Shown here piece after piece: positions 26,430-64,000 of a stretch of DNA of 64,000 bases (the first letter of the stretch is position 1; each line of letters opens with the position of its first letter). The stretch covers positions 67,208,001 to 67,272,000 of the forward strand of contig OX597817.1 of the NCBI GenBank assembly GCA_951406725.2, given 5' to 3'. Below the pieces are notes generated by a model. That model was not told the origin of the DNA, did no database searches, and saw only the letters and a program-made list of their open reading frames with translations. The stretch comes from Octopus vulgaris. Lineage: Eukaryota. A program made the translations under genes and the position numbers.

Positions 26430-26475
26430 CCACTACAATTGTTTCGTGTCTCTTCTAAGGACATTCATCAGGTGG
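26430..26475 (-). ncRNA. Minimal type-I hammerhead ribozyme (canonical core)
   Basis: ccac-CTGATGA-a-tgtc[cttagaaga]gaca-c-GAAA-caattg-TA-gtgg. Confidence 0.85.
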
Positions 26476-29400
26476 ATTTCAGATCTAAAAATAATCAATA
26501 TTTTTAAGATATAAATTTAAAATGACTAAAACTATAAATAATATAAATTTATCAATGAAAATATATATATATATATAATCTATATATAATCTATATATAA
26601 TCAATAACTAAAATAACCTCTATAAACAATTGAATATAAAGAAACCTAGTATTTAAGTTCTCATATTTATAGATGAAGAATCTAATTTCAAAAAACAAAA
26701 AATAAAAATAAAATATATATACACACATGCTCATACGCATATATCTAAGTATATATAAACATATCTAAATACATACACTAACTCACACACCCATATATAT
26801 ATCTCTATACATACACATAAACATCTAGGCAACGATAAATTAATAAAGTAGCCGTATACTTCTACACATTACTTATTCATACTCCCACACACACACATAC
26901 AATCCTCATTCATAAACACACTCACTCTGCATGACAACCACACATCCAGCAGCCGCATATACTCAACCACAACAACATAAACATTTCATTCTTAGCAAGA
27001 AACTACCAAATACCATATACCACATATATACAACAACCATACATAAATACTTAAAACAAACACACACCCACACATATTCCAAATACCACATGCATGCAAC
27101 AAACATACACAAATACGCAAACAAACACACACACACACACACACACACACACACACACACATTCACACATACATAAACACTCAAAAGAAAACAACATTTC
27201 TACACATAAACAATGCACACCCACACACACTCACACACAATCACTCACATACAACCGCACTCCTACCGCCACTCCAACACAGAGGAGTAACAAATTCAGC
27301 AGATACATACACTCAGCCACATACATAAAGTAACATTCCCTACTCAGCAATATACTATTAAAAACCCCAACACCACTCTAAAACAAATTTATGAATGTGA
27401 ATAATAACTTATATAGAATTATTCTATTATTAAACCATTTGAAAACGAACCTATCTATTTATCAAAGTATGTCTAAGTTATTTAATAATTAATAACAAAG
27501 AAAAGTACGATAAATAGAACACTACATAAACAACAAGATTAACATAAGGAGAATATATTATTATTCAAAAGCTTATACATATTAAAATTACAATTAGGAG
27601 ATCTTAAAAAAGTACACACCTTCTATTCAATTTTAAGTTATGAAGTGAATTTAAAAGTCTAACTATTACAGCGTTTACAAAATTACGTTACCATAGAAAT
27701 AGAATATATTTTTAATAAATTCTTTGCGCGTGATGAACGAACGTTATTTTAAAGATTATGAATGGAATAGAACGGAATAATATGTTAATCAACGTAAATA
27801 GACTAAATTTACTACAAAATTCTTTAATAAAACAATCATGATAAACGAAACCCATACATACAAATATAATGATAAAACCTCCCTTTACCATACACAATAA
27901 CAAACCTATATAGCAATCCCCCTAATCTATACATTCACACACAAATACACACACATATTTACACACACCCACAAACATATACACACTCACACATACATAT
28001 ACATATGTACAATACTCGATATATACACCAATATATTCACACCCACACCCATACAGATTAATAAATAAATAGATATACATCCATAAATATATATATATAT
28101 ATATACTTTCACACATATCATCACATACACATATATATATAAAAATACACACATTCACAAAAAATAAATAAATAAATATTTATTTATTATATGTATATAT
28201 GAGTGTGTACACAAGACGGGTGCAATCTCACGCACATTCAAACATGCATGTATACAAGTGCATAAACAAGCACACTCATTTATATAGTACTCACGCACTC
28301 CCGCATCTACACATGCACTAGTACACGCGCATACATGCATACACACCCATACATGCATATTCACGGACACCCTCCTAAACATCTATATAAACGTATATAT
28401 GGCTACAAACTATACCCAAATAAAAAAATAAAACTGCCATGATCACCATACCAAATATAATACAAGGGGATTGGAAACATTCACAATATATAGGGAACAA
28501 CCATACAAAAACATCCCTAAAAACCTAGTGGCTCCCATTCATCCAAATCAACCCGTAACAAGTTATACCCATATAAGCCATAAATTAATATTATATTATA
28601 ATAAATTAATAAATTAATGTAAATAAACAAATCTAAATACGTACATACACAAACAAACTTATATAGCAATACCCCACCCTATAAACTATTTCCCACACCC
28701 TCACATCCCAAACTAAAACTAATATTCAAACAAACCCATTCAGCAAAATTATAAAACAACCACAACACGTATACACAATATAATAAAATACCAAATTCAC
28801 ATCTGCACATATACATATATACACATAGACACATACACATACACATACACAAATACGTATATATACACACACAACTACATACAAATACATATACATACAC
28901 AAATACACATATATACTCACATACTTATATACACACATATGTACACACACCTGCAACACACACTTTTTCATACATTATACTTACTTATACATACTAAACA
29001 TACATACAATACTCGATATATACACCACTATATACACGCCCATTTCCATAAAATAATATATATCCACATATATACATATAAAATATATATATATATATAA
29101 TAAAATAAATAAATAAATAAAATAAAATAAATCTAATATAAATAAAATTGTAACTTACCAGACTCAATGTTCCATAAACAGTTATATATTAATATACATT
29201 AATAATAAATGAATTAATACAAAGAAATACCATTTATAGCCTAACTATAATTAAAACCTAAACTACATAACTAAAGAATTATAATGGTACTCTAAACACA
29301 TAAAGAGAACTTAAATACTAGGTTTCTTTATATTCAATTGTTTATAGAGGTTATTTTAGTTATTGATTATATATAGATTATATATAGATTATATATATAT

Positions 29401-29489
29401 ATTTTTTCATTGATAAATTTATATTATTTATAGTTTTAGTCATTTTAAATTTATATCTTAAAAATAATGATTATTTTTAGATCTGAAAT

Positions 29490-29535
29490 CCACCTGATGA
29501 ATGTCCTTAGAAGAGACACGAAACAATTGTAGTGG
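29490..29535 (+). ncRNA. Minimal type-I hammerhead ribozyme (canonical core)
   Basis: ccac-CTGATGA-a-tgtc[cttagaaga]gaca-c-GAAA-caattg-TA-gtgg; palindromic stem III, GUA cleavage triplet. Confidence 0.85.
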
Positions 29536-29704
29536 CGAATTTAATTTTATTTAATTTATATTAAACTTTTTTATGTATTGGATTAAGTCTTTCTTTGTTT
29601 GATTTGCAAAATAGTGGTTTTGTCTCTAATTAATATTATAATTATATATATATATATATATATATATATATATATATATATATATATATATATATATATA
29701 TATA

Positions 29705-60869: not shown

Positions 60870-63169
60870 TTAAACTTAAATGTTTTAGCCCGAAGGCTGC
60901 GGCCATGCTGGGGCACCACCGCTGAATGAGCTACACTAATTTGTGAATCCACCTCTGATACGTGGCACTTGATCCGTGCTGCAACGGACCGGCGTATTGT
61001 CCAGCTAGGGAATATATAGGCCACGGAAATCCAGGAAACCGGCTCTATGAGGCTTGGTGACTTGGGAAGGAACTTTATCCTTTGCCTCTTTTATTATTAG
61101 TGGCAGTGTTAACCAAACAAACAAAGACTATTTATCCAGCAAATACGGTGTTAAATAGCCATCCCAACTGATTGGTAGTATCGTATTGTATCACTCTCTC
61201 ACTCTCTCTCCTACCTTATAGTAGTCCTGTATCTAAAATTTTTACGACTCTTTTACTCTATCTTTTAGTCCCCCTCATACTTCTTTCCTCTTTTCTTTTT
61301 CTCGCTCCCCCTCTCTCTCACACATTTCTTGGCCCTCTCTTTTTTTAACTCTCACTTTTCCTCCTCGTTTATCTCCCCTACACCATTCCTTTTGTCTCTG
61401 ATTTTGTTTACTAATACTTCAATCCCATTGCCCCCTACCCTCTCTCCTCCTTCCACTTGACCGGTGTCCAGTCAGCCATGATCTTTCTTTCTTGGTCTGA
61501 CAGATGACCCCCGACACCTCTTATGTCCATCTTCTATGTTCTTGCCTTTAGGCTTTCACTTCATACACGACAGCTCAATTTGAATCGTTCTCAGTCGAAA
61601 GACACCTGTTGTTATATTCTTGTTGCTTGTATTTGTAATTGTGTACCATGTTCTCCGTTTTTTGTATTTGTTGCCGTACACATTCGCAAGCTTTCTTTTA
61701 AAAAATCTAATGCTCTTAGCTTAGACGTTTTGGGGAGCAACCAGATTGAAGTGTCTCACGTGTAACTGCTCGAAAGATTAATGACTTTTGGTAACTTGAC
61801 TGAGGAATGAAGGCTACGAATGACCTGTCTTTTTTTTTCGTATCTCTCTAATTGTTATTTCTCCTGTCCGCCTTTGTATCGTCTATCTGTCCGAATGTTT
61901 TATTGTCCTCTATTGCGTTTTTGTTCCATTACACACACACATGTATATGTGTATATATATATATGCATAATTACATATATATATATATATATATATATAT
62001 ATATATATATATATATATATACATATATATGTGTGTGTATATATATATATTTATATATATATGTATGAATGTGTGTGTGTGTATATATATAATATATATA
62101 TATATATATGAATGTATGTATGTATGTATGTATGTATATGTCGCCTAGAAATTCCTGATTTGGGGTGAAACTGCGAGTCGCTGTGAAAGTTTGAACTTTC
62201 AAGTATCTACAATGAATTTACTCGGCGATTATATTTAACTCTCTTAGTGATAGCAGTACTTTATACATGCAACATACTCTATGCTATGTGTGTGTGAGAG
62301 AGAGAGAGTGGGGGGATTGTGCGTGTGTAATTAATATATATATATATAATTAAAATATTTGCAATATGTGAATGCCATTATTTTGTTAAGCAAAACAGCA
62401 AAACGGTTTGGTTAACTCACACTACCACTGCCATCCCATCCTCCCACTACCTGTCACGCCAATACAGTCCCTCCCTCACTAACACATAGTTATCGCTGTT
62501 TCTCATTATAACTACAACGCTTTCAACCTTCCTTTCCACACAACTTCTCTACATGAAGAAATTAAAACAATGTTTGAGATTCAGGGAGAGAGAGAGAGAG
62601 AGAGAGAGAGAGAGAGAGAGAGAGAGAGAGTGTGTGTGTGTGTGTGTGTGTGTGTGTGTGTTTGCGTGTGTGTGTGAGAGTGTGTGCGTTTGTATGTGCA
62701 AGAGAAAAAGAGACAAAAGGAACAGCAAATGGGGAACAGGTTATAATAATGCACAAAGCGGAAGGATGGTGAAATAGTGAAAGGTAGCTAGATAAATTGA
62801 TAGTTAGGTAGTTAAATAGAGAGAGAGAGACAGAAAGACAGAGAGACAGAAAGAGATACAGACAGAGTAACAAAGTAAATGGATGAAGTAGAAAACGTAA
62901 GACGAAGACACAAGCAATTCAGAAGGTGAATGAATAAAATAGAATGTGAGAGAGGGAGGGAGTGAGAGAGAGTGAGAAGGAAATGGAATAGAAAAGGAGA
63001 GGGTGTGTTTGTGTGTGAGAGAGAGAAAGAGAGAGAGGGGGAGGGAGGGAAAGAGAGGGGGATTTGGTTTATAGGAAATAAAACTGCCTGGATCAAGTTA
63101 ACTTAGATAATTTATCAACGACTAAGCATGGTAAATGACTAAGTAATAAACACGGATATCTATATCTAT

Positions 63170-63470
63170 ATAAACACACACACACACACACACACACACA
63201 CACACACACACATACAGAGAGATGTGTGAGCGTGTCACTGCTTCTGTATGCATGAATGTATGCATGTATGTATGCATGTGTGTATGTATGCATGCATGTA
63301 TATTTGTATGTATGTATGTATGTATGTATGCATGCACACATGCATGTATGTATGTATGTATGTATGTATGTATGTATGTATGTATGTATGTATGTATGTA
63401 TGTATGTATGTATGTATGTGTGTGTATGAATGAATGTATGTATGTATGTTTGTATGTATGCATGTGTGTA
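63170..63470. repeat. (CA)n and (TATG)n microsatellites
   Basis: Directly visible. Confidence 0.9.
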
Positions 63471-63729
63471 TGAAGGCGTGGCAAAGTATTTTTGCATATA
63501 GTTTGAACAAACTTTTACAATGAGGATTAAGGCCTTCTTATGAAAATTCTGTTTTATTAATGACTGTGGCCTACTCTGGATATTTACTCCGACAACGTAC
63601 ACACACGCACACACACACACACACACACACACACACACACAACCATACATACACACACATTCACCAACACCCCCACACATGCGCGCGCGCATTATTTTGA
63701 TCATGAAATTACAATTATATATATATATA

Positions 63730-63850
63730 TAGTCAATAATAAAAGGGTAAAATTAATTAATTATTAATTAATAATTTTACCAAGTAGTTTTCAGTATGTA
63801 AAAAGACGATTTACGGTATATTTAAAACGTAATGTTTTAAATATACCGTG
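63730..63850 (-). mobile_element. Diverged relative of the 58584-59701 repeat
   Basis: agggtaaaattaatta.ttattaat..accaagta..ttcagtatgtaaaa matches 59064-59118. Confidence 0.65.
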
Positions 63851-64000
63851 TATATATATATATATATATATATATATATATATATATATATATATACACA
63901 TATATGGCAAATGAAAGACGGAAGATGGAATATACGAGAATTTATTAATCACGACAATTGTTTCGACACATCTATTATCCATCCCTTATTATACTCAACT

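Follow-up and report, generated by a model that had tools for sequence, protein, structure and literature searches.

A 64,000-nucleotide stretch of the Octopus vulgaris genome (contig OX597817.1, positions 67,208,001 to 67,272,000; hereafter the window, whose own numbering is used below) carries 13 hammerhead-ribozyme motifs or their remains. The feature is real and of a known kind. We conclude with good confidence that these are minimal type-I hammerheads at the 3′ ends of repeats, that the repeats are Penelope-like elements (PLEs) in one family and likely in the others, and that the intact motifs are predicted to cut weakly, as dimers. The window is 35% GC and rich in microsatellites, and the assembly to which it belongs comprises 2.8 Gb in 227 contigs.

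The window was searched with a descriptor for a type-I hammerhead with a palindromic stem III, in which any Watson-Crick pair was allowed at positions 3 and 8 and one inserted base or a mismatch of the first pair was tolerated. Five clean matches were obtained, at 26430(−), 29490(+), 58773(−), 60748(−) and 60820(+), as against none in each of 20 block shuffles. A sixth match, at 59336(−), came in when one core mismatch was tolerated, for which the shuffles gave a mean of 0.35. The motif at 39277(−) is intact as well; its stem I of 3 bp falls under the descriptor limit. Six of the 13 copies are thus intact (the five clean matches and 39277) and seven are decayed. The damage lies in stems II and III at 32730, in a G8A change at 36865, in G5A at 59336, and in C3U plus a broken stem I at 44018. 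The motif at 37142 has G5C, a core about 95 nt upstream of GAAA and a stem I of 2 bp; 43635 has A6U, present also in both relatives that were found; and 63951 consists of the 3′ half only, its decayed core lying past the window end. The original prediction had listed about 13 motifs from several repeat families. Each of its coordinates falls on such a motif or its remains, and the families and the order stem I, 7-nt core, stem II, GAAA, stem III, UH, stem I stand, but only six of the copies are intact. The 13 sites are repeat copies of 10 families (A, B, C, D, E, E1, F, G, G2 and H) from about 10 insertion events, A, B and C supplying two motifs each. A (TA)n repeat lies 53-192 nt past position 17 at 11 of the 13 sites, (TA)n itself being common in the window.

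Genome-wide searches were made with all families except G2. The relaxed descriptor was passed by 29/30 top loci in family A, 30/30 in B, 27/30 in C, 12/30 in D, 9/30 in E, 9/25 in E1, 25/30 in F, 15/25 in G and 6/25 in H, the top loci being those most similar to the window copy rather than random samples. A palindromic stem III of 4-10 nt was present in all nine families scanned. The canonical U4 and a paired 10.1-11.1 position were seen in C, D and F; C4 replaces U4 in G, H and E1, and 10.1-11.1 is mismatched in A, B, E and E1. Position 17 is U in families B, C, E, F and G. Reversed-pattern controls gave no match for the family patterns of C, G, F and E1.

Family C is a palindromic mini-element at 60666-60884, arranged head to head about a centre near 60808, with its right arm shortened at 60884. 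Each arm holds an intact hammerhead, at 60748-60797 (minus strand; U17 at 60755) and, identical to it, at 60820-60869 (plus strand; U17 at 60862). The motif has a G3-C8 core pair, an extra G after A9, a 7-bp stem I, a 5-bp stem II and a 6-nt palindrome. With the 7-nt core left free, the family C pattern had 7,102 matches in the genome. Core states of families C, F and G were tallied by eye in the first 100 matches from the start of chromosome C1; in C, G3 occurred in 99, C8 in 96 and both in 95, while C3-G8 occurred in none. Two loop-II subfamilies have stems and core in common, and variants at a frequency of at least 5% within the motif are those of loop II, one CpG and one stem I site that keeps a G·U pair. 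Public contigs from 4/4 runs, under three organism labels, covered the C arm, which shows presence only; the variants listed in their C motif spare positions 3 and 8. A 97-bp direct duplication of a LINE-like (long interspersed nuclear element) 3′ region, 98% identical, occupies 60311-60407 and 60878-60974, and the right arm of the C element switches into the second duplicate at a shared 7-nt word, which accounts for its shortening.

The intact family F hammerhead at 39277-39313 (minus strand) has a U3-A8 pair, an extra G after A9, a 5-bp stem II, a 4-nt palindrome and U17 at 39280. Its element runs on to a tail ending near 39127, followed by (TA)n. Family F had 2,147 genome matches, with U3-A8 in 93 of the first 100. 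Global alignment of C and F from end to end scored 117, compared with 65 ± 7 (maximum 89) in 300 shuffles. The tail is common to both families, and each has an ATG-started frame that runs off the element end, with 11 residues shared. Loci with two arms and a single tail made up 11/14 in C and 11/16 in F; none had two tails. The ATG frames, in the last 90 nt including the tail (39127-39210, minus strand), resemble the start of an open reading frame (ORF), and no longer protein was found. Judged by the alignment, C is the end-to-end homologue and sister of F. The C/F architecture also occurs with C3-G8, in 25 matches of which about half are F-like. When eight hand-picked rows from three lineages were aligned, a set that represents few events and is not a statistical sample, U4, G5, A6, A7 and A9 were invariant, whereas the 3-8 pair was U-A in four, G-C in three and C-G in one. 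Two stem I pairs changed on both sides, and a stem II C-G became U-A by inspection. With C3-G8 in an older F-like copy, the 3-8 pairing thus takes three states within one lineage. That homologues keep the pair as C-G, U-A or G-C argues for selection on the hammerhead fold at the time each master arose.

The link to PLEs is direct for family F. The 665-residue ORF of locus L301 carries a YVDD motif and a Cys-rich linker and terminates in a sequence of GIY-YIG type; an F hammerhead lies about 680 nt downstream. In L300, a tailed inverted F fragment and a truncated ORF are arranged head to head; the ORF has GIY-YIG at its end, with the F motif behind it, and this frame, 94% identical to L301, scores above the Pfam cut-off for GIY-YIG. 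An F-type motif was found in 10/16 stretches fetched 3′ of ORF homologues and was cut by the edge in one more; L305, with 70% ORF identity, has C3-G8. Family F is therefore shown to be the 3′ pseudo-LTR (long terminal repeat) of an element encoding reverse transcriptase (RT) with a C-terminal GIY-YIG endonuclease. The linker motif CX2-5CxxC, present in L300 and L301, makes these elements candidates for the Neptune clade. F tail junctions are AT-rich. A search for the F parent with the short tail peptide had no database match, and the parent was located through the genome instead.

The genome holds 6,136 GIY-YIG candidates, many of them in 781-residue frames that also match RVT_1. The 781-residue PLE group (L121-L126, L131; for example C16:20835000-20841000) is young, with many intact RT plus GIY-YIG frames; its terminal hammerhead has U3-A8 and precedes (TA)n by about 85 nt. 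In one of its subfamilies stem II is shortened and stem I broken. The hammerhead core of a second PLE group (L127, L130, L094) reads U4C at two loci and U4 at the third, with U·U at 10.1-11.1. BLAST matches of site 63951 to the 781-residue PLE were mostly TA repeat and were not accepted.

Inverted, 5′-truncated copies with a tail at one end were seen in C, F, A and B, and an inverted partner in E. The other families are likely PLE ends too, A, B and C to judge by their architecture. The family A insertion (26242-29640) consists of a long minus-strand copy ending in a tail of about 80 nt (26242-26323) and, head to head with it, a tail-less inverted copy of 335 nt (29305-29640); both ends abut (TA)n. 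It looks like a non-autonomous PLE; family A has 1,011 candidates in the genome. Its two intact hammerheads, at 26430-26475 (minus strand; A17 at 26434) and 29490-29535 (plus strand; A17 at 29531), have the same sequence, with C3-G8, a fixed A·C at 10.1-11.1 and an 8-nt palindromic stem III. In family B (58581-59706; 1,365 genome candidates) a 563-nt unit is partly repeated in tandem on the minus strand, and an inverted 3′ fragment (59539-59706) adjoins it, again with (TA)n at both ends; no other family forms such partial tandems. One of its two motifs is intact (58773-58833, minus strand), with C3-G8, a fixed A·A at 10.1-11.1, a 10-nt palindromic stem III and U17 at 58778; the other (59336-59396, minus strand) is broken by G5A. 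A and B both form outward-facing inverted pairs of variable spacing, with a tail on 14/36 A arms and 17/42 B arms. The original prediction had placed the motifs among PLE-type minimal hammerheads, and the ORF of F and the inverted arms with optional tails of A, B and C bear this out.

The remaining families are present in the window as decayed copies. Family D (32730-32770, plus strand) has, in its majority, a canonical core, a 5-bp stem II and a palindromic stem III. Family E1 (36864-36944, plus strand) has a long stem II and the G8A change; among its 37 genome matches 16 have C4 and 21 U4, and C4 is likely the state of its master. The family E motif (37143-37257, minus strand; core 37255-37249) has a very long loop II, and we found, in addition to the 13 sites, the 5′ half of an inverted partner at 37878-37986 (plus strand; core 37900-37906). 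The weakest site is the G-like motif G2 (43635-43670, plus strand), with U at position 6 and a broken palindrome; only two relatives were found. Family G (44018-44052, plus strand) is the largest counted, with 10,154 matches and U4C as its majority state: the first 100 have C4 in 77, U4 in 21 and A4 in two, and all eight copies with A17 keep U4. Since C4 cannot arise from U4 by CpG decay, it is likely the master state in family G. Family H is represented by the 3′ half of a motif with a long stem II (63945-64000, minus strand; C17 at 63953), and the majority core of the family has C4. All three 3-8 pairs reported by the original prediction, C-G, G-C and U-A, were confirmed; the U4C cores, the fixed mismatches at 10.1-11.1 and the relationship of C to F had been overlooked.

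Several observations weigh against the conclusion that these are PLE hammerheads capable of cutting. By prediction the hammerhead fold was never the minimum-energy monomer. An intermolecular stem III is worth −6 to −12 kcal/mol in A, B, D, E, E1 and H, but is marginal in C (−0.2), F (+2.2) and G (−1.7 kcal/mol). Full-length family C RNA folds into one hairpin of −132.6 kcal/mol that buries the ribozyme, so that cleavage of C would need a one-armed transcript. The intact motifs are accordingly predicted to cut only weakly. The covariation between C and F amounts to the few events of the chosen rows, and near-identical copies reflect recent amplification rather than selection on each copy. A coding parent was found for none of A, B, C, D, E, E1, G, G2 and H, and the RVT_1 scores of the ORFs described above are mostly below the Pfam cut-off (16.3 bits for L301, cut-off 29.6). 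The window itself contains no PLE ORF: Pfam analysis of 88/453 candidate frames gave only zf-RVT and Tc1/mariner pieces, and when 15 protein pieces were run by tblastn on the window and on the interiors of families A, B, E and G, none of the PLE proteins matched significantly. Inside the family A insertion tblastn of PLE proteins found none at E < 1e-4; the best match, with E = 0.029, was not accepted.

A mechanism that would fit the architecture, modelled on published PLE work, is as follows. The element RNA would be bound by an RT-endonuclease supplied in trans, which would cut and prime both strands of AT-rich DNA. Two 5′-truncated copies, one started from the tail site and one not, would then join head to head. 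This would leave hammerheads in both orientations at 50-190 nt from (TA)n, and most copies would subsequently decay neutrally. Cleavage would need two RNAs paired by the palindromic stem III, and probably PLE protein as well. More speculatively, the fixed centre of the palindromes, about 10 nt 5′ of stem I, could have arisen where a short inverted repeat allowed snap-back priming.

We considered four other explanations. One holds that the motifs descend from PLE hammerheads whose cutting is no longer needed, that they are carried as an RNA region bound by the PLE protein, and that the most amplified families are weakened or buried; we think this possible, although the balance is against it. 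It would account for U4C, which lowers activity in vitro, being prevalent in family G while the A17 copies keep U4, for the mismatches fixed at 10.1-11.1 in A and B, for U17 in B, C, E, F and G, and for a family C palindrome that buries its motif; catalytic mutants of an anole PLE, moreover, had no effect on insertion. Opposed to it are the double compensatory changes at 3-8 and in the stems between C and F, which require structural selection at least in the masters, and the two C subfamilies, whose divergence in the loop only points the same way. A viroid U4C variant also works in vivo. It is unlikely that some families, B above all with its 563-nt tandem unit, are instead non-LTR retrozymes whose multimers are cut to unit length and circularised. 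The partial tandems of B with one hammerhead per unit, its intermolecular stem III, which is the strongest (10 bp, −11.6 kcal/mol), and a preprint arguing for retrozymes as non-autonomous PLE derivatives speak in favour; B loci, however, have inverted arms and tails rather than long arrays, and the animal retrozymes described so far, about 170-400 nt long, are recognised by classical type-I motifs.

That C and F are foldback or MITE-type (miniature inverted-repeat transposable element) DNA transposons with an accidental likeness to hammerheads seems very improbable. The palindromes are near-perfect, have a fixed centre and are often flanked by TA repeats, and there are Tc1/mariner remnants in the window. 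Yet the two ends of C and F elements differ, only one arm having a tail, F lies 3′ of the RT plus GIY-YIG ORF, and the full core and stems are kept across both families; for F this explanation is largely refuted. Chance matches in AT-rich repetitive DNA can hardly be entertained. A loose G3-C8 pattern does have a high background (48,299 matches, 35,747 in the control), and 43635 and 63951 are poor single copies. The shuffles and the reversed-pattern controls of the family patterns nevertheless gave no match, and chance is refuted for the six intact sites and, at the family level, for D, E, E1 and G.

The closest known systems are the minimal hammerheads of metazoan PLEs (Cervera and de la Pena 2014, PMC4209133), which share the type-I topology, the short palindromic stem III, a base between 9 and 10.1 (base 9a) and a U3-A8 family. 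There too a single genome holds numerous divergent families, most copies are solo or truncated, and pairs on opposite strands occur. A diversified self-cleaving RNA system, as the original prediction put it, is thus not new, and more than half of the window copies are decayed. G3-C8, U4C and the fixed A·C or A·A at 10.1-11.1 were not found in the parts of that paper covered, and here stem III palindromes of as many as 8-10 nt and a loop II as long as about 95 nt occur. Endonuclease-bearing (EN+) PLEs (Craig et al. 2021, PMC8557442; Frangieh et al. 2024, PMC11167929) are alike in RT with C-terminal GIY-YIG, an inverted 5′-truncated copy, a tail at one end, AT-rich or microsatellite targets and a hammerhead near the 3′ end, and the CX4CxxC linker of the F parent is of the kind that Craig et al. 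tied to Neptune. They differ in that C and F were amplified also as short palindromes with a fixed centre, and in their tails, about 50-80 nt here and 30-40 nt there. In the anole PLE, the protein cleaves AT-rich DNA on both strands and starts reverse transcription at two sites bounding the tail; the anole hammerhead cuts only with protein, and insertion does not need the cutting (PMC11167929). Non-LTR retrozymes (Cervera and de la Pena 2020, PMC7229834; bioRxiv 10.64898/2026.07.22.740005, the preprint mentioned above) resemble the present families in being non-coding, in the type-I hammerhead and in the tandem units of B, but long arrays were not seen here and PLE-type inversions and tails are present. 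A literature search for Penelope-like elements, hammerheads and octopus returned only Craig 2021.

The core of family C corresponds to the engineered C3G/G8C double mutant, which partly restores cleavage (Kalweit and Hammann 2013, PMC3884650), also in the anole PLE (PMC11167929); in contrast to these, G3-C8 is here natural and family-wide, with U17 and not C17. U3-A8, U4C and a U·U mismatch at 10.1-11.1 have natural precedents (Perreault et al. 2011, PMC3088659), the source also of the effects of U4C in vitro and in the viroid; U4C is a viroid rarity there and the majority state of a large family here. In the literature covered we found only engineered uses of G3-C8, while Lunse et al. 2017 (PMC5785218) and Przybilski and Hammann 2007 (PMC1986816), outside that coverage, may mention it. 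A natural G3-C8 hammerhead such as that of family C has probably not been reported in print. It is predicted still to cut RNA despite the flipped core pair. A G3-C8 variant is reported to be more active with G17 than with C17 (data not shown in the source), and U17 in family C may avoid a G3-C17 trap; U17 occurs in B, E, F and G as well. In its boldest form, which we put forward tentatively and would not bet on, family C would be an active and undescribed natural G3-C8 hammerhead fixed in thousands of palindromic mini-Penelopes, the three states would prove the tertiary pair with U17 avoiding the trap, and the spread of the largest counted family with U4C would indicate selection for slowed cleavage.

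We also compared the window with nearby DNA. A strict descriptor gave four matches in the 64 kb (two insertions) and 12 in 441 kb of locus flanks; five of the 12 are partner arms of family A, leaving seven independent matches. BLAST of 19 hammerhead queries against 490 kb of flanks predicted about 4.7 family copies per 64 kb, compared with 13-14 in the window, although ascertainment favours the window because the queries were drawn mostly from it and the flanks are locus flanks, not random DNA. Relative to nearby DNA the enrichment is perhaps two- to threefold, so that the repertoire, described as dense in the original prediction, exceeds the flank expectation only modestly. The prediction that CUGANGA-type searches would miss the variant cores held. 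Strict CUGANGA with a perfect stem II had no match in the window, CUGANGA with the first mismatch or an insertion tolerated had three, and Rfam at gathering scores found no hammerhead there. At E ≤ 10, the 150 listed of 288 Rfam matches over the whole window were microsatellite noise. The family A hammerhead reached 11.3 bits against Rfam Hammerhead_1, with a cut-off of 34, and the family C hammerhead had no Rfam hammerhead match at E ≤ 10. An A3-U8 family, sought in the genome, showed no excess (2,782 matches, 3,452 in the control). About eight more distinct hammerheads with palindromic stem III and mostly canonical cores occur in the flanks of L005, L016, L023, L043, L094, L099, L132 and L149, one of them 3.3 kb beyond the window end (L132 3342-3399, minus strand).

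Other repeats were noted in the window. A SINE-like (short interspersed nuclear element) unit of 184 bp is present in 2.6 tandem copies at 30958-31444, with relatives elsewhere in the window. Inverted-repeat elements lie at 40116-40569, 34189-35274 and 48111-49636, the last two enclosing remnants of Tc1/mariner-like transposases; Pfam transposase matches cover 48301-49167, and mariner matches occur also at 54580-55272. A 205-residue frame with a zf-RVT domain (45644-46258) is the 3′ fragment of a non-LTR retrotransposon. The frames at 38068-38740, without a Pfam match, we take to resemble a Helitron fragment.

PLE hammerheads are near-universal in their elements, yet in the sole in vitro system cleavage was dispensable for insertion. 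A census that relies on CUGANGA or Rfam would overlook most of the approximately 19,000 matches that families C, F and G contribute by themselves. The octopus genome offers homologues that differ at the core pair (G3-C8, U3-A8 or C3-G8), that combine U4 with A17 or C4 with U17 and that have unequal copy numbers, together with coding PLEs. Whether cleavage is selected for, tuned down or lost is thus directly testable here.

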